Below are positions 6,252 through 64,000 of a stretch of DNA of 64,000 bases, in pieces. The notes under the pieces were generated by a model. The model was not told the origin of the DNA and ran no database searches. It saw only the letters and a program-made list of their open reading frames with translations. The stretch's first letter is position 1. Each line of letters opens with the position of its first letter. Both the position numbers and the translations under genes were made by a program. Origin of the DNA: a bacterium (GTDB taxonomy: Bacteria > Sysuimicrobiota > Sysuimicrobiia > Sysuimicrobiales > Segetimicrobiaceae); assembly GCA_035307565.1 (NCBI GenBank), contig DATGHZ010000031.1, positions 29,061 to 93,060 on the forward strand, in the 5' to 3' direction.

Positions 6252-7081
6252 ACTCAGCGGAGGGCGCGGGACGCACGGTCGAAGAGGCCATCCGCAACGC
6301 GCTGCGCACGCTCGGCGCACGGCGCGAGGACGTGGACCTCATGGTGCTCGATGAGGGCAGCCGGGGCGTGCTCGGGCTGGGCGCCCGGGAGGCGCGCGTC
6401 CGGCTGACACTCCTGTCGGCCATCGAATCCGGCGAAGTCGAGGAGACCGCGCCGGCCCGGCCCGAAACCGGCGACGGCGCCGACGCCGTCGCCGTGGCCC
6501 GGCGGGTGACAGCCTCCCTCGTCGACGCGATGGGCATGGGCGCCTCCGTGGCGGCGCGAGAAGAGGATGGCGGCGTGCGCGTCACCGTGAGCGGCCCGCA
6601 GCTCGCGCCGCTCATCGGCCGCCACGGCCAGACGCTCGAGGCGCTCGATCTCCTGGTCAACCTGATGACGGCGCGGCAGCTCGGCCGCCGCGTCCCGGTC
6701 GCGGTGGATGCCGAGCGGTATCGTGAGCGGCGCCGCGAGGCCCTGGAGGCGCTCACCCTCCGCGTCGCCGGCCGAGTCCGGCGCAGTGGCCGTCCCGCGC
6801 CGCTCGACCCGATGCCCGCCTCAGAGCGGCGCTTTGTCCATACGCTGCTCGCCGACGATTCTCAACTCACGACGTACAGCGAAGGCGACGGTCCCGAACG
6901 GCACATTGTGATCGCGCCGAGAAGCGGCGTCGCGGAGGATGCCGCCGGCCGCGACCCCGCCCGCCGCCCGCAGCGCCGCACACCGGCACGCGCTACCGCG
7001 CGTGTCGCGCCGCCGGTCGAGTCTCCCGCCGCCGCCGGCGCGGACCTGGACGAGGACGCCGCGGAGGACACCGGCCGCTAA
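6248..7081 (+). CDS. jag: Jag/KhpB RNA-binding protein (Jag_N, KH, R3H) with an acidic/Ala-rich C-terminal tail
   Basis: GTG at 6248 overlaps the yidC stop (GTGA). [53 protein letters not shown]..., R3H-like ...FVHTLLADDSQLTTYSEGDGPERHIVIA... Same frame as track ORF 5762..7081. Confidence 0.85.
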   Translation: MNSAEGAGRTVEEAIRNALRTLGARREDVDLMVLDEGSRGVLGLGAREARVRLTLLSAIESGEVEETAPARPETGDGADAVAVARRVTASLVDAMGMGASVAAREEDGGVRVTVSGPQLAPLIGRHGQTLEALDLLVNLMTARQLGRRVPVAVDAERYRERRREALEALTLRVAGRVRRSGRPAPLDPMPASERRFVHTLLADDSQLTTYSEGDGPERHIVIAPRSGVAEDAAGRDPARRPQRRTPARATARVAPPVESPAAAGADLDEDAAEDTGR

Positions 7082-7088
7082 TTCAACC

Positions 7089-7787
7089 ATGGCGCCGTCC
7101 GCGCCGGCGATTCCCGCGGCGGCCGCCGGACTCGGTCTTTCGCTCTCGCAAACCCAGCACGATCTCCTCGATCGGTACCTCGCGCTGGTCGAAGAATGGC
7201 GCCCGCGCCTGCGCCTGACCGGCGTGGCCCGCGATGAGACCGCCGCGGTGCTCGTCGCGGGTGCCCTTTGTGTGCTGCGGTTCCTACCGGAGTCGGGCCA
7301 TCTGGTGGATCTTGGGAGCGGTGCCGGGGTGCCCGGTATCCCGGTCGCCGTGGTTCGTCCCGGGTTGCGTGTTCTGCTGGCCGAGGCGACGCAGAAGAAA
7401 GCCGCGTTCCTCGGTATCGCCGTACGGTCGCTCGGGCTCTCCAGCGTCGCGGTCGCGGCGGCACGCGCCGAGGATCTCGGCCGCGATCTCGCGCACCGCG
7501 CCAGGTATGACGCGGTGACGGCGCGGGCGCTCGCGCCGGTGCGCGTGCTCGTAGAGTACGCGTTGCCCCTGTTGCGCGTGGGTGGTGTGGCGGTGCTGCC
7601 GAAGGGCCGCGGCGCGGAGGGCGAAGTCCGCGCCGCGGCCCGGGCGTTAGACCTGCTCGGCGGCGCGGCCGTCGTGCAGGCCCCGCCCGCCGGATTTTGC
7701 TCCCCGATTGTGGTCGTCCGGAAGATCGCGTCGACGCCCGACGATTACCCGCGCCGTGCCGGGGCACCGGCGCGGCGGCCCTTGTGA
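7089..7787 (+). CDS. rsmG: 16S rRNA (guanine527-N7)-methyltransferase RsmG (GidB)
   Basis: Internal ATG in track ORF 6939..7787: MAPSAPAIPAAAAGLGLSLSQTQHDLLDRYLALVEEWRPRLRLTG...LVDLGSGAGVPGIPVAV (SAM-binding motif). Confidence 0.9.
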   Translation: MAPSAPAIPAAAAGLGLSLSQTQHDLLDRYLALVEEWRPRLRLTGVARDETAAVLVAGALCVLRFLPESGHLVDLGSGAGVPGIPVAVVRPGLRVLLAEATQKKAAFLGIAVRSLGLSSVAVAAARAEDLGRDLAHRARYDAVTARALAPVRVLVEYALPLLRVGGVAVLPKGRGAEGEVRAAARALDLLGGAAVVQAPPAGFCSPIVVVRKIASTPDDYPRRAGAPARRPL

Positions 7788-8826: not shown

Positions 8827-9667
8827 GCGAGGACTCGGACGCGGCCTGGACGCCCTGATCCCCGGTGCGCCCGCCGAAGCCATTGGATCCGCCACCGAAA
8901 TCGACGTCTTCCGCATCGGGCCCAACCCGTTCCAGCCGCGCCGCGAGATAGCCGGGCCCGAGTTCGACGAGTTGGTCGCGTCCGTGCGCCAGCACGGAGT
9001 CCTCCAGCCGGTGATCGTCCGGCCTAAGGATGCCGGGTATGAGCTCGTGGCGGGCGAGCGGCGGTGGCGGGCCGCCCGAGACGCCGGCCTCGTGACGATC
9101 CCGGCGGTCGTCAGGGACGTTGGGGACCGGGAGATGCTGGAGCTGGCGTTGGTCGAGAACCTGCGCCGGGAGAACCTGAATCCGGTCGAGCGCGCGGCCG
9201 CGTACCGGCGGCTCTCCGATGAATTTCAGATGACGCAGGACCAGGTCGCCGAAACGGTCGGCTCGAGCCGGTCCGCCGTCGCGAATACGCTCAGGCTGCT
9301 GGACCTGCCTGCAGAGGTGCAAAGCGCGCTCGCGCAGGGCCGCATCAGCGAGGGGCACGGCCGCGCGCTGCTCATGGCGCCCGACACCCCGACGCTGCTT
9401 GAGATCTGGAAGGCCGTTGAAGAGAAGGCGCTCTCGGTTCGGGACACGGAGGCGATCGTCCACGGACGGCTCCGGCGTGTTTCACGTGAAACATCGGTGC
9501 GGCGGGGCCGGCGGCGTGATCCTCAACTCGCCGACCTCGAGGTTCAACTCAGGGAGCGCTACAGCACAAGCGCGGCGATCCGCGGTAACGGGACGCGCGG
9601 CGCCGTCGAACTGCGTTATTACTCCTCGCAAGACTTGGAGCGATTGATCGACCTGCTTCTCCGCTAG
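8819..9667 (+). CDS. parB: Chromosome partitioning protein ParB/Spo0J
   Basis: Internal ATG in track ORF 8459..9667: MIKRGLGRGLDALIPGAP...; ParB box GERRWRAA; HTH; overlaps the parA stop. Confidence 0.92.
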   Translation: MIKRGLGRGLDALIPGAPAEAIGSATEIDVFRIGPNPFQPRREIAGPEFDELVASVRQHGVLQPVIVRPKDAGYELVAGERRWRAARDAGLVTIPAVVRDVGDREMLELALVENLRRENLNPVERAAAYRRLSDEFQMTQDQVAETVGSSRSAVANTLRLLDLPAEVQSALAQGRISEGHGRALLMAPDTPTLLEIWKAVEEKALSVRDTEAIVHGRLRRVSRETSVRRGRRRDPQLADLEVQLRERYSTSAAIRGNGTRGAVELRYYSSQDLERLIDLLLR

Positions 9668-11196
9668 ACGCTCGTGACGTACTCGGACTGCTCGGCCGGC
9701 TGACCGGAGCGGTTCGAGAGCAGCCGGCGGAGCGCGACCGACAGCCTTCGCACGCCTTCGGCCAGAATATCTTCCGGCTTATCGGCAAACGATAGCCGCA
9801 GTCCCGATGGCGGCGGTGTGTGCGGTAGGAACAGATCGCCGAGGCCGCACGCGACCCCCTCTTTGAGCGCCTCGGTGAAGGCTTCGCGGGCCGGGATCTC
9901 GGGAGGCAGGGTTAGCCAGAGGTTAAATCCGGCCGTCGGCCGCGTCCAACTGACGCCGACCGGCATAGAGGCTTCGAGCATGCGCAGTACCGTGTCCCGG
10001 CGGCGCCGGTAGGTGTCTCGCGCCAGGCGCAAGTCTCTCGCGTACTGCTTCGACGACAGATACCGCCAGAGCGTCCGCTGGATTAACGGTGAAGTGAACC
10101 GGTCCATCACGAGCTTGGCCTCGATGAGCCTGGCGACGATCGGTCCGTGCGCGACAATACAGCCGACGCGAAGACCCGGGATCACCGTCTTCGAGAAACT
10201 CCGGACAAAGACGACATGGCCGCCGGAATCATAGGCCTTGACCGCCGCCGGCGCCTCACCGTCGTAGGAAAACTCACTGCACGTGTCGTCTTCCAGGATA
10301 AGAAGATTGTGCTGCCGGGCAAGCGCGGCGAGCCGCCTCCGCCTGTCATCGCTCATGACGACGCCGGTCGGATTGTGGGCGGTCGGAATGGTATAGATCA
10401 GCCTCGGCCGGTATCGTTCCACGAGAGCTGCCGCCGCGTCGACCCGCATGCCGTCGGCATCGACCGGTATGCCGATCAGTTTCGCCCCGCGGCCTTCAAA
10501 GATGTCGAGCGCGGTCAGGAAAGTCGGGCTCTCCACGAGGACGTGATCTCCGGGCGCCGCGAACGTTCGCGCGATCAGGTCGATCGCCTGTTGAGACCCT
10601 GAGGTGACGAGCACCTCATCCGCCCGGGCGGTGATGCCCGCAGAGGCGCCAAGGCCGGCGATCCAGGCCCGCAGACTCGGATCCCCCTGCGGGGACCCGT
10701 ACTGCAGGAACTTCGGGTCCTCGACAGCGAGAGCACGGTGCCAAAGCCGGCCGAGTGCTCTGACGGGAAACAGCGTGGGGTCGGGGATGCCGCCCGCGAG
10801 CGAGATCACGGCCGATCGGACGGCCGGCCTCAGAAGCGTCTCCATGGCTGTAAGGCGTGGGGCCCGAAGATGCACGGGAAGAGAAGACTGCCATTCGGTA
10901 TCGTTCGTGGCAACGATTGTTTCACGTGAAACAAGGGACTGCGACGGTGCGGCCTGCGGACTGCCGGCGAATGTTCCCCGGCCGACGGCGGCTTGAACGA
11001 GTCCGTCCGCGGCCAAGACCTGGTAGGCCTGCACGACCGTGATGAGGCTGACGTCGAGCTGTCTCGCCAACTCGCGAACCGAGGGCAAACGGTCACCCTG
11101 GGCGATCCGCCCGCTCCGGATCAACGAGGCGATACCGGCGTGCAGTTGCCGGTAGAGAGGGGTATCCGAATTTCGCGTAAGCTGAATCACGTCCAC
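9664..11196 (-). CDS. pdxR: MocR/GntR-family regulator with aminotransferase-like (PLP) domain, PdxR-like
   Basis: Track ORF, 510 aa; N-terminal GntR HTH (MDVIQLTRNSDTPLYRQLHAGIASLIRSGRIAQGDRLPSVRELARQLDVS) plus fold-type I aminotransferase domain. Divergent from the pdxS-pdxT locus, like PdxR. Confidence 0.85.
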   Translation of the reverse strand: MDVIQLTRNSDTPLYRQLHAGIASLIRSGRIAQGDRLPSVRELARQLDVSLITVVQAYQVLAADGLVQAAVGRGTFAGSPQAAPSQSLVSRETIVATNDTEWQSSLPVHLRAPRLTAMETLLRPAVRSAVISLAGGIPDPTLFPVRALGRLWHRALAVEDPKFLQYGSPQGDPSLRAWIAGLGASAGITARADEVLVTSGSQQAIDLIARTFAAPGDHVLVESPTFLTALDIFEGRGAKLIGIPVDADGMRVDAAAALVERYRPRLIYTIPTAHNPTGVVMSDDRRRRLAALARQHNLLILEDDTCSEFSYDGEAPAAVKAYDSGGHVVFVRSFSKTVIPGLRVGCIVAHGPIVARLIEAKLVMDRFTSPLIQRTLWRYLSSKQYARDLRLARDTYRRRRDTVLRMLEASMPVGVSWTRPTAGFNLWLTLPPEIPAREAFTEALKEGVACGLGDLFLPHTPPPSGLRLSFADKPEDILAEGVRRLSVALRRLLSNRSGQPAEQSEYVTSV

Positions 11197-11307
11197 CAGT
11201 TACCACTCCCGCAGAAACACGAGTCACGACTCCCGAAGAAACCCAGCGTTCTCACGACGGGCGCCCCTTCTGCGTCCGCTAAACTCGACCAAATTGGTGC
11301 TGCACGA

Positions 11308-11328
11308 TTGTCAATAATAATATTGACC
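11308..11328. promoter_or_regulatory. Inverted repeat TGTCAATA-N4-TATTGACC in the AT-rich divergent promoter region (candidate PdxR operator)
   Basis: ttgtcaataataatattgacc at 11308..11328, 7/8 palindromic arms. Lies in a markedly AT-rich 270 nt spacer between the divergent MocR regulator and the HD/pdxST genes. Confidence 0.45.
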
Positions 11329-11468
11329 AAATCGTATCTCTAGATTATAAGGGATAGTACCATGTTCAGCAGGTTAGTCAACGTGTGTTACTATATACAC
11401 ATAGGGTCGGTACGAGCGGGTGCTATGCTGGTGCCTGTGAAAGGTCGCGCCGGGAGGGTGGGGACGAC

Positions 11469-12059
11469 GTGACGCGCGAGGAGGCGTGGGCGTTACTGGT
11501 CGCCGAGACGCCGTCGGTCAACCTCCAGAAGCACATGCTCGCCGTCGAGGCCGTGATGCGGGCGTATGCTCACCGCTTCGGCGAAGACGAAGACACATGG
11601 GGCCTTGTGGGGCTGCTCCACGACCTGGATTACGAGAGGCACCCCTCGCAGGAGGCCGGCCACCCGTTTGTGTGCGTGGAACTTCTTCGCCGGCGCGGCG
11701 TGCCGGAGGCGCTGTGCCGCGCCATCCTCTCACATGCCGACTACAGCGGCGTCCCGAGGGAGAGCCGCATGGAGAAGGCGCTCTTCGCGGCCGACGAGCT
11801 GTCCGGATTCGTCATCGCGGTCGCGCTCGTCCGGCCGTCGCGGGCCATCGCCGAAGTCGACGTCCCCGCGGTTTTGAAGAAGATGAAGGACAAAGCGTTT
11901 GCCCGCGCCGTGCGGCGTGAGGACATCGTGCGCGGCGCCGAGGAGCTGGGGTTGCCGCTTGACGAGCATATCGGGGTCGTCATTCAAGCGTTGAAGGGCA
12001 TCGCGCCGGAGTTGGGGTTGAACGGCGCCCGGGCGAGCGCATCGGCCGGGAACACTTAG
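11469..12059 (+). CDS. HD-domain phosphohydrolase (HDIG-like)
   Basis: GTG internal to track ORF 11385..12059; HD motif ...[50 protein letters not shown]...; directly upstream of pdxS, same strand. Confidence 0.75.
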
Positions 12060-47193: not shown

Positions 47194-47385
47194 TCCAGAA
47201 CCTCCTTGGTCGGGCGTGCCTCCCGCCGCGCCGCCGGGCCCGGGGCGGGCGGGGCACAGCGGCGGCACGGCGGGGTGTCACCCATTGTGCAAACGCCGCG
47301 GACGCGCCCGCCGGTTCCGGCGCGGCGGCCATATGAAAGACTATTCACCGAATCGATAGACTACGATCACAATTTGTTTGGCGTA

Positions 47386-48267
47386 CTAGTGTTTCACCGC
47401 CCCGAGCGTGAGACCGGAGACGATATGCCGCTGGACAATGAGGGTCAGGACGATGACCGGGATTGTGATCATCGTGGCGGCCGCCGCCAGCGGCCCCCAA
47501 CTGATTTCTTCGTAGTTGATCATGTTGAAGACGGCGATCGGCAGCGTGCGCGTGTGCCGCCCCGCGAGGATCACCGAGAACAAGAAGTTGTTCCACGAGA
47601 AGATAAAGCTGAGAATGGCCGCCGCCACGATCCCCGGCCGTACGAGCGGCAGCGCGACCCGCCAGAACGCGCCGTAGTGCGAGCACCCGTCGATCAACGC
47701 GGCCTCCGTCAGGTCGGGCGGAACGTCTTCGAAAAAGCCGGCCATGACCCAGATGATCAGAGGGAGCCCGACGACGAGATGGGTCAGGATGAGGGCCTCG
47801 TAGGTGTCGACGAGATGGGCGCGCCGGAACAACACGTACCATGGGATCAGATAGCTGATGCCGGGGATGATGCGCGCCACCAGGACGGTGAGGGCGAGTC
47901 CGTGTTGGCGCCAACGGGCAATGCTGAACGCCGCGGGGAGGCCGGCTGCCAGACCGAGGAGCGTACTGCCGGCCGCGACGACAAAGCTGTTCCAGACGTA
48001 CTGGGGAAAGGGGTTCTTCCGGAACACTTCGGCGTAGTTGGTGAGCGTCACCGCGAAATGGAAGAAGTGTGGCGGGTACCCCGCGGCCTCCACCTGTGTC
48101 TTCAGGGACAGCGTGATCATCCAATAAAAGACAAACACCGTCGGCAGCATGACGATGCCGACGACAGCGTAGTACCCGGCCGTCCGGAGGGCGCCGAGGG
48201 CGCGGGGTCTCCGGCGCCGCGCGAACGCCTCCCGCCCCACCGCTCCGGCCGCCGCCGCAGTTACCAC
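47386..48267 (-). CDS. Carbohydrate ABC transporter permease (MalG/CUT1-like)
   Basis: GTG overlaps the upstream permease stop (GTGGTAA); EAA-like loop ...EAALIDGCSHYGAFWRVALPLV... Confidence 0.85.
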   Translation of the reverse strand: MVTAAAAGAVGREAFARRRRPRALGALRTAGYYAVVGIVMLPTVFVFYWMITLSLKTQVEAAGYPPHFFHFAVTLTNYAEVFRKNPFPQYVWNSFVVAAGSTLLGLAAGLPAAFSIARWRQHGLALTVLVARIIPGISYLIPWYVLFRRAHLVDTYEALILTHLVVGLPLIIWVMAGFFEDVPPDLTEAALIDGCSHYGAFWRVALPLVRPGIVAAAILSFIFSWNNFLFSVILAGRHTRTLPIAVFNMINYEEISWGPLAAAATMITIPVIVLTLIVQRHIVSGLTLGAVKH

Positions 48268-53301: not shown

Positions 53302-53598
53302 CTACCGCTCACGCTGCCCCGCCGATCGAGATGGAAACGGCGGACCGTAATAGTAAGTGTACGGCGTGGAATAGGGGCTGTTGTAGTACGTATACGGCTG
53401 GGCGGGGCAATTGTTATAGACGATCCCGCCGATCGAGTATGTCTGGCAGGCCGACCCGTAATAGGGCGAGTACGGGTACATGTAGTATCCCTGCGCCTGG
53501 GCGGGCAAGCCGCTCAACGCGACGAGCGCGTCGGCGGCCAGCGTTAGCACCGCCACGCGTGCGACGATGTGTCGGTAGTGACGAAGACGAGCCACCAT
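53302..53598 (-). CDS. Small tyrosine-rich secreted protein (98 aa)
   Basis: ATG with RBS aggaggtgaa internal to track ORF 53302..53667: MVARLRHYRHIVARVAVLTLAADALVALSGLPAQA signal peptide, then GYYMYPYSPYYGSACQTYSIGGIVYNNCPAQPYTYYNSPYSTPYTYYYGPPF. Confidence 0.65.
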   Translation of the reverse strand: MVARLRHYRHIVARVAVLTLAADALVALSGLPAQAQGYYMYPYSPYYGSACQTYSIGGIVYNNCPAQPYTYYNSPYSTPYTYYYGPPFPSRSAGQRER

Positions 53599-53758
53599 GG
53601 AGTTCACCTCCTTACGGCCTCCTATGTACGTTTTTATCACGGGACCACCCGATGGAAAACCCCTCAATTATGCGATTGTTGTGAAGCGGCCGCCGGCCTT
53701 GACGCGGGGCTCGTTGTAATTCGAAAATAATGGAAACATTCCGGGAGGGCCCGGTACG

Positions 53759-54130
53759 GTGATGCCGTCGAAAACGCGCGCCGATGTAGAGGACGTTGCC
53801 CGCTACGCCGACATGTTCGCCGCAATCGGTACGGAGGCGCGGCTCCGCATCGTGCGTCTGCTGCTGGCGGCGCACCCGCACGGGCTTGTGGCCGGCGAGG
53901 TGCAGGCGGAGCTGGACATGCCCGCGTCGACCCTGTCGCATCATCTCGAAAAGCTGCGCCATGAAGGCCTCGTGACGGTGCAGCGGGAGGGCACGTTCCT
54001 CCGGTACGCTGCGAACGCGGACGCGCTTCGCGACCTGCTCGGCTTCCTCTATGCCGAGTGCTGCACCCGCAGCCGCGCGGTCAGTCCGAAAGCCGTCGCG
54101 TGGACCGGCCGCCGCACGCCGAGCCGCTGA
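53759..54130 (+). CDS. ArsR/SmtB-family metalloregulator
   Basis: Track ORF, 123 aa; HTH ...LSHHLEKLRHEGLV... Confidence 0.85.
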   Translation: MMPSKTRADVEDVARYADMFAAIGTEARLRIVRLLLAAHPHGLVAGEVQAELDMPASTLSHHLEKLRHEGLVTVQREGTFLRYAANADALRDLLGFLYAECCTRSRAVSPKAVAWTGRRTPSR

Positions 54131-56906: not shown

Positions 56907-58007
56907 ATGGCGGCCGCGATGGGCATCGGGCGCTTCGTGTACACTCCGATCCTGCCCCGCATGACCGAAGATCTCGGGATGACGAAGAGCGCCGCGGGCC
57001 TCATCGCGTCGGCAAATTTCGCGGGGTATCTGGCCGGCGCCGTGGCCGCCGCCACACCGGTCCTGCGGGGCTCCCGGCGGCGATGGCTGCTGATGGGGCT
57101 GGCGGTCAGCGCGGCGACCACCGGTGCCATGGCGTTCGTCTCGTCGATTCCCGCGTTCGTCGTGCTGCGCTTTGCAGGCGGCGTCGGAAGCGCCTTCGTG
57201 CTCGTCTTCGCGTCCGCGCTCGTTCTCGACCGGCTCAAAGCCGCCGGGCGCGGCGACCTGGCCGCCGTCCACTTTGCCGGTGTCGGGACCGGCATCGCGT
57301 TTTCGGCGATTCTTGTCTCCGCTCTCGCCGCGCGGGGCGCCGGCTGGCGCATGCTTTGGCTCGCAAGCGGGGCCGTGTCCGCGCTCGCCCTCGCCGCCGC
57401 GGCCGGCCTCATCCCCGACCGGACGGACAAGGCGCCCGCCGCCCAGGCACCCGCGGCGCGGGCAGGCCGGCGGTTGACCGCGTTTGCCGCGGCGTACGGT
57501 CTTTTCGGCTTTGGCTACGTCATCACGGCGACGTTTCTCGTGGCCATCGTCCGTGGTTCGCCTGAGGTGCGTTCGCTGGAACCGTTGGTGTGGGCCGTGG
57601 TCGGTCTCGCCGCGATCCCATCGGTCGCCCTCTGGACCGCGATCGGCGAGCGGACCGGCATCGGCCGCGCATTCGCTCTCGCCAGCGTCACTCAGGCGGC
57701 CGGTGTCGCCGCAAGCGTGCTGTGGATCGCGCCCGCCGGGGTGTTCTTCGCGGCGCTGCTGCTCGGCGGGACGATCATGGGACTCACCGCGCTCGGCCTC
57801 ATCGCCGGCCAGCGGCTCTCGGCAGGTGATCCGCGGGCGACGCTGGCCGTGATGACGGCGTGCTTCGGCGTCGGCCAAATGGTCGGCCCCGCGTTCGCCG
57901 GTGTGCTTCACGATGCGACCGGAAGCTTTCTGCTGCCGTCGATGGCGGCCGCCGCGGCGCTGCTCTTGGGAGCGATCTTCGCCATCTCGGCCGGGCCTGG
58001 GGGCTGA
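56907..58007 (+). CDS. MFS transporter (YbfB-like)
   Basis: ATG internal to track ORF 56742..58007; 12 hydrophobic segments. Earlier in-frame codons overlap the exonuclease gene. Confidence 0.75.
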   Translation: MAAAMGIGRFVYTPILPRMTEDLGMTKSAAGLIASANFAGYLAGAVAAATPVLRGSRRRWLLMGLAVSAATTGAMAFVSSIPAFVVLRFAGGVGSAFVLVFASALVLDRLKAAGRGDLAAVHFAGVGTGIAFSAILVSALAARGAGWRMLWLASGAVSALALAAAAGLIPDRTDKAPAAQAPAARAGRRLTAFAAAYGLFGFGYVITATFLVAIVRGSPEVRSLEPLVWAVVGLAAIPSVALWTAIGERTGIGRAFALASVTQAAGVAASVLWIAPAGVFFAALLLGGTIMGLTALGLIAGQRLSAGDPRATLAVMTACFGVGQMVGPAFAGVLHDATGSFLLPSMAAAAALLLGAIFAISAGPGG

Positions 58008-58151
58008 CCGGCACCTCCTGCTCGCAGAGTGTCGAAATTCCCCCCTCGGTTCGTTGTGATAGCTGGATCGACCATTCGCGCATCTTGCCGGCCGGCAAGG
58101 TGATGGAGGCCGCAGGTCGACGAGCCACGGGACGGGAAGATCGCCGCCGCT

Positions 58152-59087
58152 GTGAGACGTGGCCGGAACGAAATTGTGTTTCTGCAAGCGCGGTGGCCGA
58201 GCGCCAACTCGTATCTCGTCACGAGTGATCCGCCCGTCCTGATTGATACCGGTTATTGCACCGAGGTGCCCCGGCTCGAAGCCGCCCTCGCCGCCTGCGG
58301 GGTCGCGCTTCAGGACATTGGTCTCATCGTCAACACCCATTCCCACAGCGACCATATCGGCGGGAACAGCGCCGTACAGGCCCGGTCGGGCGCGCCGATC
58401 GCCATGCACCCATATGAGGGCCGCCCGATCAATCAAGGGGACTGGTGGAGCGCGGGCCTTCGTTATCTGAACCAGGAGGCGTCGCCGTTTCGCGTGGCGC
58501 GGTACCTTGAGGAGGGACAGGAACTGCGGTTCGGCGGCGTTTGCCTTGAAGTGATCCACGTCCCAGGGCACTCGTCGGGAAGCATCGCGTTTTACGAACG
58601 CTCGCGGGAGACGCTGATCGTTGGCGACGTGTTCCACGCCGACGACGTCGGCTGGATCAACGCGCCGATCGAGGGCGCGATCGCCGTCCACAACGCCAGG
58701 CAGTCGATCGAACGGCTTGCGCGTCTGCCGATCCAACGCGCTTACAGCGGGCACGGCCCAGCGATCGGGGATGCGGCCGCGAGCGCACAGGCGGCGCTCC
58801 GGCGGATCGAATCGTTCATCGCAGAGCCCCGGCGGATGGCCCTTCATGGAATGAAGCGGGTGTTTGTTTTTGCGCTGATGATCGGCGGCGGAATCGCGGA
58901 ACGCGAGGTCGTTCAACATCTCCGGCAGACGCTGTGGTTTCCTGAGTTCTGTGTCCGCTACTTCGATGGCGAATCACAGGAGGCCGTTGCCGGCCGCCTG
59001 CTCGACGAGTTGTTGTCTGCCGGTGCCATCGCGCTGCGGGACGGGCGCCTCATGAGTACGGCGATGGGTTCGACGCAGCCTGTGTGA
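58152..59087 (+). CDS. MBL-fold metallo-hydrolase
   Basis: Track ORF; HSHSDH motif (VNTHSHSDHIGGN). Confidence 0.8.
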   Translation: MRRGRNEIVFLQARWPSANSYLVTSDPPVLIDTGYCTEVPRLEAALAACGVALQDIGLIVNTHSHSDHIGGNSAVQARSGAPIAMHPYEGRPINQGDWWSAGLRYLNQEASPFRVARYLEEGQELRFGGVCLEVIHVPGHSSGSIAFYERSRETLIVGDVFHADDVGWINAPIEGAIAVHNARQSIERLARLPIQRAYSGHGPAIGDAAASAQAALRRIESFIAEPRRMALHGMKRVFVFALMIGGGIAEREVVQHLRQTLWFPEFCVRYFDGESQEAVAGRLLDELLSAGAIALRDGRLMSTAMGSTQPV

Positions 59088-59095
59088 ACACCGCA

Positions 59096-59563
59096 ATGAA
59101 ACGCAATGCTCGCTGCGCGCGACTGCGCTATCGGTGGCTCTTGGGGGCAGTTCTTATACTGGTCGTCTCTTTCGGGCGCGCGTCGGCCGCGCCTGCGACG
59201 CCGGCCCCCGACGGTATTGCCGGGAGTTGGCGAGGAACGTGGAAGAGCACCCAGTCGCCGGCCAAAGGAAGTTTCTCGGCTGCTCTCTCGCTCAAACCGG
59301 CATGGTGGGGAGACGTGGAGATCGTCGGAACCCTGAGGTTTGGCGGAATGCCGTGCGCCGGCCTACTGCGCGTGTCGGGAAGTTACTATCGTGATCACGA
59401 GTATCTTCTCACGGCGAAGGGTGCCGACGGGACGGTCCGCGCGACATCTGCCGTCACCATCATGAATGGTCCGCCACGGTCTCTGTCCGGTCATTATGAA
59501 GTGGTGCCCAGCGGGACGGCGTGCGGCTCGGATTCGGGAAGAGTCGACGCGACTGCCCGGTGA
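59096..59563 (+). CDS. Secreted hypothetical protein
   Basis: ATG internal to track ORF 59084..59563: MKRNARCARLRYRWLLGAVLILVVSFGRASAAPA signal peptide; no family assigned. Confidence 0.55.
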   Translation: MKRNARCARLRYRWLLGAVLILVVSFGRASAAPATPAPDGIAGSWRGTWKSTQSPAKGSFSAALSLKPAWWGDVEIVGTLRFGGMPCAGLLRVSGSYYRDHEYLLTAKGADGTVRATSAVTIMNGPPRSLSGHYEVVPSGTACGSDSGRVDATAR

Positions 59564-60070
59564 GATGATCGCCGCGGGGTGCTGGTATTGGCGCTGACAT
59601 AAGTCTAGGCACAGATCTCCGATGGGAACGGGGCGCAGAAGCACACCCATTGATGACGCAGCCAGTCGATTCGGAAACGCGGCAGCTGCTGGAAACGTGG
59701 TGGGTTCGGCTACGGTAGCAAGCCTTGGTTCGTCTTAATGTTTCCCACGCCACCGATTGCGACGAGGAGTAGCGCGGGGGACCGCAAGCCTGATCAAAAT
59801 CTCGCGAATCGTCATGGGCGGTCCCTTCAGAGGGTCAGCTTGACCAGCCGAGTCTCACCATATTGTCCGAGGTCGGGGCCTGGCGCTCTCGTGGCGGTGC
59901 GTGGGACCGATCACACGAACCTGGCGCAGATCATGCGGCGCGGCACCGCTGCGCAGTTTGCCGTACGATCGGCCTGGCTCTGGCCCGCACGTACTCGTCG
60001 AAAGAAACGTCGGGATAGTCGCCACGCGCGGCATCCTCGACATCGCTTACGAACGAACCTCGATGGGCGA

Positions 60071-60637
60071 CTACCGCGTAATGCGCGTAATCTTGGCTCC
60101 CTGTAGCGAGACGTCGAACATCAGGCCCTTCTGGCCCACCACGAAAGCCACAACGGGCTGGTTGATCTGCATCGTGCTGAGATCGGCGCCGACCCCCACG
60201 TTCACCAGCGTGACGGCGCCGTTGACGCCGACCTGCCAGCCCGACGCCTGCTCGAAGCTCCTGAGCGCCGCCCTGTCCCGGAACACAAGAAGAAGGTCCT
60301 TCGACTGGATGCCGAACGACGCGCCCCAAGATCCGCCCGCGATGCTATAGTAGCCGTGCGGCTGACCGCCCTCCCTCAGGGCTCCCTCGCCGTACTGTCC
60401 CCCGATGACGAATGCGACCTTGACGACACCCGGGAACACGAGCACGCCTTTCGACGACGCAAGGAACTTGGCGCCGCCCTTGACGGTCTCGTCGAAACGC
60501 GCGATCGCGGCATCGACACCGGCGTTGATTTCGGCGGCCGTCTTGGCCTGTGAGACGCTCGGCGCAGCCAAGCTGCCGAGCCACAACACGCAGATTGCGA
60601 CGACCGCTACGGTCCTGCGGGCACGCATGTGCATCAT
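60071..60637 (-). CDS. Secreted Ysc84/SYLF (DUF500) lipid-binding domain protein
   Basis: Track ORF, 188 aa; signal peptide; ...SWGASFGIQSKDLLLVF... is typical of the SYLF domain. Confidence 0.65.
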   Translation of the reverse strand: MMHMRARRTVAVVAICVLWLGSLAAPSVSQAKTAAEINAGVDAAIARFDETVKGGAKFLASSKGVLVFPGVVKVAFVIGGQYGEGALREGGQPHGYYSIAGGSWGASFGIQSKDLLLVFRDRAALRSFEQASGWQVGVNGAVTLVNVGVGADLSTMQINQPVVAFVVGQKGLMFDVSLQGAKITRITR

Positions 60638-60895
60638 TTCGAGGTCACCTCAGGGTCAATCGGATGGTGAAGGGGATAATTCGACCTAATTGAGAGTGTC
60701 ATGGGAACCCTAATTGTCCGTGCCGTTCGATTTACGCTCGATTTTCCCCTGCTGCTTGGTATGAAGACAAGGGTTCCTTCGCGATAATGACCGACGGAAT
60801 CAATCTCGTGGAGGGGCAAAAATCCAGGCTAACGGCGCCGCAAACGTCGGTTGCTTATCTGGAAATTGCTAGGGCGAAATTGAATCCTCCAACGT

Positions 60896-63800
60896 CTATT
60901 GGCGCCGTTTCTCTAAGTTGGCGAAGCGGCTGTATTCTTTGTGAAAGTACAGTTCTACGGTGCCAATGGGTCCGTTGCGATGCTTGGCGATGATGAGCTC
61001 GCAGATATTTTCTTTGTTCTCTTTCTGAGCTCTTTCCTGATCGTAGTAGTCTTCACGGTAAAGAAAGACAACAAGGTCGGATACTTGCTCAATCTCGCCC
61101 GAATTATGCGCGGCTAAACCGTGGGCGATGAAGTTGTGAGTTGCCGGCATCACAAGATCGTACACGAGAGAAATGCCCCTCGGTGCGATGCTCACGACTC
61201 GATCCCACAGTATGTCGCTGGTTGCCATCTCTTTAACATCTGGTGCACCAAGACGCTCGGCGAGTGCAAGAGCGGTAGAACGATCGAGTGTCTTGCCGGT
61301 TTGCAGCCGGAAGCCAAGTTGCCGCCAACTAACGCCGGCTTCTTTCTTGAGCGCCCAGAGCCTCGCTGTCACCGCGTAGGGTAGTCTATCGACCCAGGGC
61401 TTGATGCGAGGATGATACGCGAGTTCGGCTCGACATCTCGCTATCAACTCGTCTTTCCTGCCTTCAATTCCGACCTGTTCACAAAAGGCGTAGAGATGTC
61501 GGACATCTTCAATGGTGACCCGGTAAAGGGGTACAGTCGCCACCTTACTCTTGTAACCGGCGCTTATCTGCGACACGATGTCAAACCGCAACAGTAGATC
61601 TCGTACGTCTTCTGCGAGTCCGAGAGAGCTGGTGTCGTAATGCAGGGACCAAAGTGTGCCGCCCGTTCGCGTGTATCGCCGGCGTGTGAGGCAGCCGTCA
61701 GTGGAGTACAGTGCCCTGAGGAGATTGCGAAGACCGTTGCGGTCGGCTTCACAGAAGACCCGTTGGGGAACGCGCTTGGTATTGTATCTTTGTCCTTCAA
61801 TACCAATCTCTCGCAGCCAATTTCGCAGGCCGTTTCCGCCACGTCTTCCGGAAAGTTGACCGTTTCCGTTCGGTTTGGGATACAGTGAAACCAACTTCAC
61901 GTATGGAACACCACGAATCCGGCCCCGTCGTCCAATTACGTTGAACTCGCGTTGGGCTATAGAAATGCAGTCCTCAAATGTGTGGGCGTCCTTGCTAATG
62001 AACGTTAAGGTCCTTCTGCACTGATAACTTCCGTCGCCAATCATGTAACCAATCAAGCGTAGACGCTCGGGCGTGAGACTCGGCGGCTTCGGCGAGAACA
62101 CCGGCAAAGACCGCGCCGCCGCCACTAGCGATCCCTCGTTGAGCTGGCCAAGAGGCTTCCAGCCCTCAGGTGTGAGGATAGGATGATTTGCGGTCGCGGA
62201 CAGCCGGCGCCCGGTGCTCGTTCGGATCTCGAACACTTCATTCTCGCCCTTTTCGAACACGGCGGCCGGCCGCACCGGGACGAGCCGTCCCCTTTTGTCC
62301 AAAGACAGCAGTCTGGGCCATTCGCTGAGTGCTGCCAACTCCGCTATGGTGTGACGCCGTCCACTGTCCGCATCCCACACCACCGTGTCGCCGGTAACGC
62401 ATTCTCTCAGGTGACTGAGCATCGGCCGCTTTTGCCCTAAGGCTTCCACCGCGCGGCTCAACTGCGAGACCGCGATGATCGGAACGTCGAGCTCCTTGGC
62501 CAGCGACTTGATCCCGCGGGCGATCTCGCTGAGTTCCTGCGTCCGGTTCTCGGAGCGCTTGTACGACTGAATCATCTGAATGTAGTCGACCACGATCAGG
62601 CCGAGGCCGTGCTCGGCTTTCAACTTGCGCGCCTTGGCGCGCATCTCGATGATTGACAGTGTGGCGGAGTCGTCGATAAAGATGGGGGCCTCGCTGAGAC
62701 CGCCCATGGCGCGCGCCAGTTTCCGCCAGTCTTCGTCGGCGAGGAAGCCGGTCCGGAGTTTGCTGTTGTCGACCTGCGCCTCCGAACAGAGAATGCGCTG
62801 GACGAGCTGCTCCTTGCTGGTTTCGAGGCTGAAGATCGCCACCGGGATCTTGTTGGCCAGCGCCGCGTGCTGCGCGATATTGAGGGACAGCGTCGTGTTG
62901 TGGACGCACACGTCGTTCGCGACGAAGTTGTGCGTCACCGGAATCGTGAGGTCGTACACGTGTTTGAGCCCGAGCGGCTCGATCGAGACGATCTCGTCCC
63001 AGCAGACGTCGTGGTCCACATCGGGGGCCGCCGGAAGTTCCGCGGCAAGCGTCGCCGTCCCGGCCGGCGGGCGCCGGCGTGCGAGCGCGCGGGTTCCGGC
63101 CGAAGCCGCGTGCCGGGTCGGATACGCGCTCGACACCTTGGCGCGCCCGGGTGCCCCGGCAACGACCGGTTCCGCCGCCGTTTCCGTGGTGAACGTCACG
63201 ATCTCCGATGCGAACGTCCGGAGCGACGCGGGGTCCGTGATCTCAACCTGCCAGCCGCCGCTCCAAGCGTAGCCGCGCGGATCTCTCGACCGGCCGAGCG
63301 ACGCCACAATGCCGAACCGCAGGAGCAGGTGCTGGACCTGGTGGGCCGGGCGTTCCCGCGCCACCGCGTACCCGGCGTAGACGAGGACGCCCGCGGCGTC
63401 GGTGCTGGCAGCTCCCGTGGCGGCGAAAAGCCGAGTGAGCAGCAACGCAAGCTGCGAACGGCGCAACGTGAACGCCGCCACGGGGATCTCATCACGCACA
63501 GACTCCGCGCCGACGACTGACTTCGCGAGCCGGTTGAGCTCGCAGTCGGACATCGCTGCGGCGCCGAACACGGGCAGCCGGCGCGGGACGGCGACGCGGT
63601 CTCCGGCGCGCAGCGCGGCCAGCGGAAGCCACCCCTCGCGCGTGAGAAACGGGTGGCACCCGGTGGTCTCGACACTCCGGCCGAGCCGCGTCGTCACGCG
63701 GAACACCGGCTTGTGTCCGTCATCGACAAACGCGGACGGCGCGGTGAACCCAAGGCGCCGGCCGGCGTCGAGCGTCATAAGGCGCGCCCGCCGCCGGCGG

Positions 63801-64000
63801 TAGACCTCCTCGATCGTCGCGACGCTCCCGTCGTCGAGCAGGATCTCGCTGTCCGCGCTCACGCACTTGCCGACCGACGGCCGGGCCGCCACAACCACCA
63901 TGTCGGCGGCCTGGAGTCCCGAAGTCAGCATGTCGAAGTCGGAGAAGCCGGTGGCCACGCCGGTGATTGTCCCCTTTTCCTGGTAGCGGCGGTCGATCTT
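60896..64000 (-). CDS. dnaB: Replicative DNA helicase DnaB interrupted by two inteins (5' end beyond window end)
   Basis: Track ORF 60896..63958 is in frame to the window edge (...KIDRRYQEKGTITGVATGFSDFDMLTSGLQAADMVVVAARPSVGK). Spliced exteins read GK|TTLSLNIAQHAALANK...LIVVDYIQMIQ...RPMLSHLRE|SGEIEQVSDLVVFLYREDYYDQ..., classical DnaB Walker A, H4 and C-terminus. Confidence 0.93.
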   Translation of the reverse strand, partial: KIDRRYQEKGTITGVATGFSDFDMLTSGLQAADMVVVAARPSVGKCVSADSEILLDDGSVATIEEVYRRRRARLMTLDAGRRLGFTAPSAFVDDGHKPVFRVTTRLGRSVETTGCHPFLTREGWLPLAALRAGDRVAVPRRLPVFGAAAMSDCELNRLAKSVVGAESVRDEIPVAAFTLRRSQLALLLTRLFAATGAASTDAAGVLVYAGYAVARERPAHQVQHLLLRFGIVASLGRSRDPRGYAWSGGWQVEITDPASLRTFASEIVTFTTETAAEPVVAGAPGRAKVSSAYPTRHAASAGTRALARRRPPAGTATLAAELPAAPDVDHDVCWDEIVSIEPLGLKHVYDLTIPVTHNFVANDVCVHNTTLSLNIAQHAALANKIPVAIFSLETSKEQLVQRILCSEAQVDNSKLRTGFLADEDWRKLARAMGGLSEAPIFIDDSATLSIIEMRAKARKLKAEHGLGLIVVDYIQMIQSYKRSENRTQELSEIARGIKSLAKELDVPIIAVSQLSRAVEALGQKRPMLSHLRECVTGDTVVWDADSGRRHTIAELAALSEWPRLLSLDKRGRLVPVRPAAVFEKGENEVFEIRTSTGRRLSATANHPILTPEGWKPLGQLNEGSLVAAARSLPVFSPKPPSLTPERLRLIGYMIGDGSYQCRRTLTFISKDAHTFEDCISIAQREFNVIGRRGRIRGVPYVKLVSLYPKPNGNGQLSGRRGGNGLRNWLREIGIEGQRYNTKRVPQRVFCEADRNGLRNLLRALYSTDGCLTRRRYTRTGGTLWSLHYDTSSLGLAEDVRDLLLRFDIVSQISAGYKSKVATVPLYRVTIEDVRHLYAFCEQVGIEGRKDELIARCRAELAYHPRIKPWVDRLPYAVTARLWALKKEAGVSWRQLGFRLQTGKTLDRSTALALAERLGAPDVKEMATSDILWDRVVSIAPRGISLVYDLVMPATHNFIAHGLAAHNSGEIEQVSDLVVFLYREDYYDQERAQKENKENICELIIAKHRNGPIGTVELYFHKEYSRFANLEKRRQ
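61103..62401 (-). mobile_element. Intein 2 (433 aa) at the second DnaB site (dnaB-b), with a LAGLIDADG homing-endonuclease domain
   Basis: Begins CVTGDTVVWDAD after ...LSHLRE and ends ...NFIAHGLAAHN before SGEIEQ (S = +1). Two LAGLIDADG motifs: LIGYMIGDGSY and LRALYSTDGCL. Noticeably lower GC than the host. Confidence 0.88.
62897..63865 (-). mobile_element. Intein 1 (323 aa) in the DnaB P-loop (GK^T; dnaB-a site)
   Basis: Begins CVSADSEILLDDG right after ARPSVGK and ends ...FVANDVCVHN before TTLSL (T = +1 nucleophile). Contains degenerate dodecapeptide-like LLLTRLFAATGAAS. GC is host-like. Confidence 0.85.

Follow-up and report, generated by a model that had tools for sequence, protein, structure and literature searches.

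Two inteins in one DnaB replicative helicase, homing endonucleases, and the co-conversion of host sequence beside a homing element are all already known. The closest described counterparts of the locus reported here are the LAGLIDADG inteins of DnaB, such as the Synechocystis DnaB mini-intein (PDB 1MI8), and homing co-conversion in phage T4 introns and in haloarchaeal MCM and PolB inteins (PMC10643990); for the MCM inteins, co-conversion of neighboring extein codons during intein invasion has been documented (PMC10643990). A further point of comparison is the amelioration described by Lawrence and Ochman. We analyzed a 64-kb stretch of DNA from an uncultured soil bacterium (contig DATGHZ010000031.1; the window, to whose positions all coordinates refer), which ends within a minus-strand dnaB gene that leaves the window at 64000. 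The second intein of this gene (intein 2), the 68 codons of dnaB that follow it (the C-extein) and the intergenic spacer beyond form a tract of low GC content. The C-extein is the only real anomaly of this tract, as it encodes a native-type protein with AT-shifted synonymous sites, and the anomaly is probably linked to intein 2. The explanation that we favor, although it may well be wrong, is that the shift was co-converted along with intein 2 from a closely related intein-bearing allele.

Translation of the minus strand from 60896 to 64000 gave the C-terminal 1,034 residues of DnaB, with Pfam matches to DnaB_C, to two intein splicing regions and to one LAGLIDADG domain. Intein 2 (433 aa, 61103–62401, minus strand) lies between ...LSHLRE and SGEIEQ..., within a conserved DnaB motif, as in described DnaB inteins. 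It shares with those inteins a Cys at position 1 (CVTGDT at 62384–62401, directly after ...LSHLRE), the TxxH of block B (TANHP, 62180–62194), and a terminal His-Asn (...GLAAHN, in the block at 61103–61165) followed by the Ser+1 of SGEIEQ. The Pfam domains are also the same, with Intein_splicing (PF14890, E 6.4e-34) and LAGLIDADG_3 (E 1.2e-24) each matched in two stretches. The N- and C-terminal parts of the splicing domain both matched the 1MI8 mini-intein (E 6e-19). Both LAGLIDADG motifs, LIGYMIGDGSY (62024–62056) and LRALYSTDGCL (61688–61720), are in an intact frame and carry the conserved acidic residue, and a length of 429–433 aa is kept in five diverged full-length relatives. Judged from its sequence, intein 2 is apparently an intact, full-length LAGLIDADG homing intein of the two-motif monomeric type.

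Relatives of the locus (designated by L numbers) were drawn from species-representative genomes and JGI metagenomes, both scanned with the C-extein, and from further contigs; some 50 loci were assembled in this way, all from one uncultured soil clade. A set of 5.8 billion proteins was searched as well. Those with no intein at the intein 2 site (L002, L011, L015, L172, L175 and L176) read through it uninterrupted as ...LSHLRESGEIEQ..., and the target in an empty allele is predicted to be ...CTGAGAGAA/TCGGGCGAG..., also given as ...CACCTGAGAGAA/TCGGGCGAGATT.... Relative to the Synechocystis site (RESG/SIEQ), the insertion point is probably displaced upstream by two residues. The other intein of the window's dnaB sits in the P-loop, as in other two-intein DnaB proteins of mycobacteria and cyanobacteria. 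Intein 2 differs from the described DnaB inteins in being just 72% identical in protein to its nearest relative among the 5.8 billion proteins, and in its host, an uncultured soil lineage labeled Armatimonadetes, Bacillota or simply "bacterium".

A first-pass annotation of this DNA had described intein 2, the C-extein and the spacer as a tract of 45–55% GC in a genome of roughly 70% GC, and had proposed either conversion of the flanks during homing from a lower-GC donor or replacement of the whole 3' end of dnaB. The tract itself is clearly present. Positions 60638–62401 have a GC content of 0.549 against a window mean of 0.683 (z = −5.5 among all windows of equal length) and are the lowest such stretch in the 64 kb, the lowest elsewhere being 0.611. 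GC content was 0.678 for the window as a whole, a little below the estimate made by eye. In 200-nt windows it was low throughout 60600–62100 (0.45–0.60), but the 5' 300 nt of intein 2 (62100–62400) stood higher than had been described, at 0.64–0.65. The coordinates were essentially correct, including the 68 codons of the C-extein; the spacer measured 258 nt, where 256 nt had been given.

GC content at third codon positions (GC3) located the edge of the tract more exactly. It was 0.866 in the complete 217-codon N-extein (taken from the identical contig L170), 0.873 in intein 1, 0.867 in the middle extein, 0.610 in intein 2 and 0.588 in the C-extein. The middle extein (165 codons, 62402–62896, minus strand) is host-typical in codon usage, its GC3 being 0.867 against 0.834 expected (z = +0.22 on the position-specific expectation of the clade). 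Expectations conditioned on amino acids used the codon usage of 35 other open reading frames (ORFs) of the window. By maximum likelihood the change point in GC3 was placed near 62446; its support interval (62374–62461) spans 62401/62402, the 5' junction of intein 2, and GC3 dropped there from 0.88 upstream to 0.61 downstream, a directly observed step in composition. A second change point at about 62065 was considered as an internal crossover; it was marginal (permutation P 0.04) and was rejected because the N-terminal part exceeds the endonuclease domain in GC3 in every full-length member of the intein family. The tract is three adjacent parts, intein 2, C-extein and spacer, rather than one imported block.

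The low GC of intein 2 itself is pronounced, with GC3 at 0.610 against 0.836 expected from its amino acids (z = −13) and values of 0.73 in the N-terminal splicing part, about 0.57–0.58 in the endonuclease domain and 0.55 in the C-terminal part. Two intein families occur at this site, family A beginning CVTGDT.VWDAD (the window's type) and family B beginning CVTGDTLVLLADGRR. All eight full-length copies at the site have a GC3 of 0.58–0.68, their host exteins being at 0.77–0.92, and the mini-inteins there lie at 0.67–0.82. In each full-length family-A copy the endonuclease domain (0.56–0.63) is below the N-terminal splicing part (0.69–0.79). Synonymous sites between the hosts of the family are near saturation, so that the low GC has been maintained over time and is no mark of recent arrival; in all the hosts sampled, low GC3 is a stable trait of the family. 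The first-pass annotation had expected an intein of foreign composition; given the family range, a GC3 of 0.61 is no sign that it arrived recently.

The likeness to amelioration in the sense of Lawrence and Ochman is partial. GC3 and codon usage are sharply off those of the host, and the degenerate intein 1 is host-like (0.87) whereas the intact-looking intein 2 is not (0.61). The difference is that low GC3 persists in hosts near-saturated at synonymous sites, which makes it look less like a transient than like an equilibrium that belongs to the element itself and chiefly to its endonuclease domain. An "amelioration clock", by which full-length inteins would be AT-richer than mini-inteins (a significant difference), was also tried; it is mostly explained by the AT-richer endonuclease domain, since full-length and mini forms have splicing domains of like GC3.

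The C-extein (68 codons, SGEIEQ...EKRRQ, 204 nt, 60899–61102, minus strand) ends at the TAG stop of dnaB (60896–60898, minus strand). Its GC3 of 0.588 compares with 0.792 expected from its amino acids (z = −4.25, P ~6e-5). None of 11,738 in-frame 68-codon windows in the other ORFs of the 64 kb was as low (minimum 0.662), an in-frame signature being required for these null windows. A null built from unfiltered ORFs, in which 2.3% of windows were as low, was discarded, those windows being out-of-frame 5' extensions of ORFs. On the position-specific expectation, the C-extein was the lowest of 35 distinct clade alleles (z = −4.4), and the three lowest alleles (the window, L010 and L006) are all carriers of a family-A intein. 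The codons used in it include TTA (1%), AGA (2%), GTA (4%), GCT (4%) and CTT (6%), all rare in this genome. Codon usage in the C-extein is thus directly seen to be atypical of the host, one of the outcomes by which the first-pass proposal was to be judged, and its GC3 is close to that of the adjoining parts of intein 2 (endonuclease 0.57, C-terminal part 0.55), unlike the host value of 0.87.

The protein encoded by the C-extein is native. It is 96–99% identical to that of exactly those relatives that are nearest in the middle extein, so that comparison of the C-extein with the rest of DnaB, proposed earlier as a phylogenetic check, revealed no conflict. It departs from the consensus of the subclade at one position only (K24R), a change that L091 has too. 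This native protein largely refutes a distant low-GC donor, and with it the suggested replacement of the 3' end of dnaB from outside the subclade.

Across the one subclade, C-extein GC3 ranges from 0.59 to 0.93, which is beyond sampling error, and the middle extein stays at 0.80–0.95. The wide spread in the last 68 dnaB codons of the clade is a minor additional feature.

The spacer between dnaB and the next gene (258 nt, 60638–60895) has a GC content of 0.504. Similar values were obtained for this genome's 228-nt spacer on the upstream side of dnaB (0.518) and, in the closest relatives, for the 250 nt that follow dnaB (0.47–0.58); the window also has other short islands of 0.46–0.55, each situated upstream of a gene. 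A search of the spacer against Rfam gave no match (E ≤1), and a scan of it revealed no promoter, no meaningful repeats and a single weak terminator-like site on the wrong strand. It is without a homolog in any related locus examined. The spacer is ordinary AT-rich intergenic DNA that lengthens the low-GC run, and it provides no evidence of foreign DNA; its role as a 3' flank of foreign composition, as first proposed, did not survive these comparisons.

The step at the 5' junction and the intein-like GC3 of the C-extein together suggest that the tail of dnaB shares the history of intein 2, which we regard as the most likely cause of its composition. Under this explanation intein 2, or a fresh full-length copy of it, would have entered the lineage through repair of a double-strand break triggered by its endonuclease, and repair synthesis would have copied the donor allele across the whole 204-nt C-extein. 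The donor would have been the intein-bearing allele of a closely related organism of the same subclade, and not a distant low-GC organism. We infer import with the intein, rather than local drift, as the cause of the shift. As in described homing co-conversion, the anomaly is contiguous with the element and extends into host coding sequence, the two flanks are affected asymmetrically, and a rare codon by the insertion site is enriched in intein carriers. That codon is AGA, which makes up 2% of the genome's Arg codons and encodes the Arg one codon before the insertion (−2; 62402–62407). It was found in nine of 12 family-A carriers and in six of 25 other alleles (Fisher P 0.0046, with phylogeny as a confounder), the strongest of 266 codon-by-state tests. 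AGA at −2 could be a short mark of co-conversion, a result of conservation of the endonuclease target, or just phylogeny.

A number of observations weigh against co-conversion, and the signature is incomplete by comparison with the classical one: no donor was found, the flank shows neither phylogenetic incongruence nor a gradient, and most other carriers lack the effect, whereas non-carriers show it in part. The raw GC3 of the two halves of the C-extein (0.50 and 0.68) gave the appearance of a gradient, but this vanishes against the clade's position-specific baseline, on which the deficit is flat (−0.21, −0.22 and −0.18) with no decay away from the intein. The 3' join of an imported tract would then have to lie past the dnaB stop, in DNA for which the relatives have no homologous counterpart. 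The upstream flank of intein 2 is shifted no more than is typical of the clade, in which GC3 dips at this site owing to conserved AT-ending codons (AGA, GAA and CAA), and the 35 distinct alleles, grouped by the state of intein 2 (none, mini or full), did not differ in flank GC3. Phylogeny confounds the association with AGA, and the protein, as described above, is closest to the relatives to which the middle extein is closest. C-exteins without intein 2 are also low (L176 0.68, L093 0.71, L175 0.72 and L092 0.75), with the closest such relatives spanning 0.68–0.81. By this comparison with dnaB 3' ends that lack intein 2, which the first-pass annotation had proposed, roughly half the apparent drop is a property of the end of the gene throughout the subclade.

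The search for a donor adds to these points. The donor must lie within the subclade, yet its sampled members have an extein GC3 of at least 0.80 outside the C-extein segment. No allele resembles the window's C-extein in DNA (best nucleotide identity 0.86), and its AT-ending codons are shared with no allele beyond position-specific chance. The best third-position identity was 0.61–0.73, synonymous sites being too diverged to resolve a donor, and no donor allele was found in the genome, metagenome, viral, phage or plasmid collections. A phage or plasmid donor was considered and set aside, as viral contigs held no relative and the best tblastn identity in phage and plasmid records was at most 42%. 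The nearest relative, L176, is without intein 2 and only 89–90% identical in extein DNA, which makes fine-scale mapping of donor and breakpoints impossible; because the searched collections contain no relative closer than about 89% DNA identity, co-conversion and drift in place cannot be separated. Co-conversion as first proposed stands in part, carried by the GC3 step and the atypical codon usage of the C-extein, with an ordinary spacer and a lack of phylogenetic conflict speaking against it.

The alternative to be taken most seriously, which we consider possible though doubtful, is that the AT shift arose in place, with no import, and that the window is the extreme of a continuum. In this subclade the last ~200 nt of dnaB would border a break in synteny, and in the window a 1.3-kb insertion also separates them from the remainder of the gene. 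A force raising GC3 (GC-biased gene conversion or selection on synonymous sites) would act weakly on such a short island, and AT-biased mutation would carry it to an equilibrium of about 0.55–0.6, the same as that of the endonuclease gene. Comparison of the region downstream of dnaB (window 58000–60900 with L001, L002, L005, L172 and L176) is consistent with such a break: the downstream gene is a different one in every relative, which makes the end of dnaB a synteny breakpoint. The overdispersed C-extein GC3 of the subclade, lowered even where intein 2 is lacking (L176, L093, L175 and L092), fits the same idea, as do the native protein, the privacy of the AT-ending codons to each lineage, the uniformity of the shift along the C-extein, and the convergence of the C-extein and the least constrained intein domain on one GC3. 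However, a 204-nt island of relaxed composition in an essential, well-expressed gene has no established mechanism, and the C-extein is unshifted in several full-length intein 2 carriers, L007 (0.88), L107 (0.84) and L017 (0.88). Alleles without intein 2 show no steady fall in GC3 towards the gene end, and the window's C-extein is still about 0.1 below the next lowest intein-free allele. A related idea, to which we give a rather low probability, is that the intein and the cut-off tail of the extein share a separate, lower GC3 equilibrium (about 0.55–0.6) in a "composition shadow" that needs no foreign donor. Such a shadow may come from too little recombination with other alleles in or near a large insertion that varies in presence and absence, where synteny also ends, and hence a lack of the GC-biased gene conversion that keeps host genes near 0.87, or from repeated homing, if its repair synthesis is mutagenic and AT-biased.

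Amino acid composition or chance alone appears improbable as the whole cause, although it contributes. Lys, Glu, Asn, Tyr, Phe and Ile are frequent in the C-extein, whose GC at second codon positions is just 0.26; its expected GC3 is 0.79, not 0.87, and the AT-ending codons by the insertion site (AGA, GAA and CAA) are conserved across the clade. This accounts for about a third of the raw drop, but a deficit persists whether the expectation is taken from the amino acids or from the codons that the clade uses at each position, and all in-frame windows in the rest of the 64 kb are higher. Replacement of the entire 3' end (intein 2, C-extein and spacer) from a distant lower-GC organism would explain the contiguous run of low GC from 60638 to about 62100 and the spacer without homolog in relatives, and the wider clade does have lower-GC members, such as L115 with an extein GC3 of 0.64. 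We nevertheless think it very improbable: the C-extein is only K24R away from the subclade consensus, whereas L115 is 85% identical and proteins outside the clade at most 72%. The GC of the spacer matches that of the upstream dnaB spacer and of the relatives' downstream DNA, and nothing closely related to intein 2 plus C-extein was found among phages, plasmids and viral contigs (at most 42% identity). Least probable of all is that the assembly is chimeric, the contig having taken in reads from a different population. The DNA does come from an assembled metagenome (ENA ERZ27279682, contig k141_2231313, identical to the window), and dnaB is conserved enough for k-mers to be common to different species. 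However, an independent Logan assembly of SRR5579864 agrees with the window across the tract (100% identity over 9,082 nt, spanning both tract ends), so that the sequence does not depend on the assembler. Two joins would be required for a chimera, including one inside the non-conserved spacer, and the reading frame, intein and extein junctions are all intact.

The intein 2 site has a varied history in this clade. Families A and B look unrelated (about 30% identical) and occupy the same exact DnaB site (L013, L017, L098 and L096–L100, compared with the window). Each family includes full-length and mini forms, which points to repeated invasion and decay at the site. The metagenome contig Ga0066903_100014943 (L091) has, like the window, K24R and an intein 1 of similar size (324 aa). 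The N-terminal part of its intein 2 is 86% identical to the window's and its endonuclease domain is deleted just past the first LAGLIDADG motif; it looks like a snapshot of a mini-intein arising from an intein of the window's type. The dnaB of the more distant L009 carries a full-length intein of family A, and a radical SAM gene that lies 5 kb further downstream (6513–7522) likewise gives intein and LAGLIDADG matches.

Intein 1 (323 aa, 62897–63865, minus strand) follows the GK of the P-loop and runs from CVSADSE to VCVHN, with T as the next residue and a match to Pfam Intein_splicing. The last 45 codons of the N-extein (63866–64000, minus strand, GC3 0.889) terminate in the Walker A sequence ...ARPSVGK. 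The endonuclease domain of intein 1 is degenerate and has lost its first LAGLIDADG motif, whereas relatives such as L011, L014 and L019 have a full-length intein 1 of 498 aa with both motifs. The GC3 of intein 1 is fully host-like, in contrast to that of intein 2.

On the other side of the spacer, the 3' limit of the low-GC tract is the gene of a Ysc84-like secreted protein (60071–60637, minus strand), with a Pfam Ysc84 match, a signal peptide and a host-like GC3 of 0.846. This gene is absent downstream of dnaB in every relative. The genes upstream of dnaB are conserved (rpsF, ssb, rpsR, DUF2232 and rplI), and the downstream position is held variously by Ysc84 (window), RibD_C, glyoxalase or PNPOx, with an IS110 transposase nearby in L001. 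A Lactamase_B gene further downstream is common to the window and L005 only (82% amino acid identity). Other islands of low GC (0.46–0.54) in the window lie at 1479–1877, 11120–11518, 47323–47541 and 53537–53797. The first two sit at the 5' ends of ORFs 540–1652 and 9664–11196 (both minus strand), which have a fairly low GC3 of 0.75–0.77, and are probably AT-rich promoter or intergenic DNA.

These results bear on how composition is read around mobile elements in high-GC genomes. The low GC of the intein is a family trait and no proof of recent arrival, and AT-rich spacers are normal in this genome; an anomaly in a short, highly conserved coding segment should be called foreign only once it has been judged on its relatives' position-specific codon choice. 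If the intein brought the C-extein with it, a homing intein would have overwritten part of an essential replication gene and left its protein unchanged, and co-conversion tracts would be readable from codon usage alone in high-GC genomes. If instead there is a composition shadow, homing elements would measurably alter adjacent host codons with no foreign donor. The spread of C-extein GC3 across the subclade (0.59–0.93) bears in turn on what maintains high GC in bacteria.

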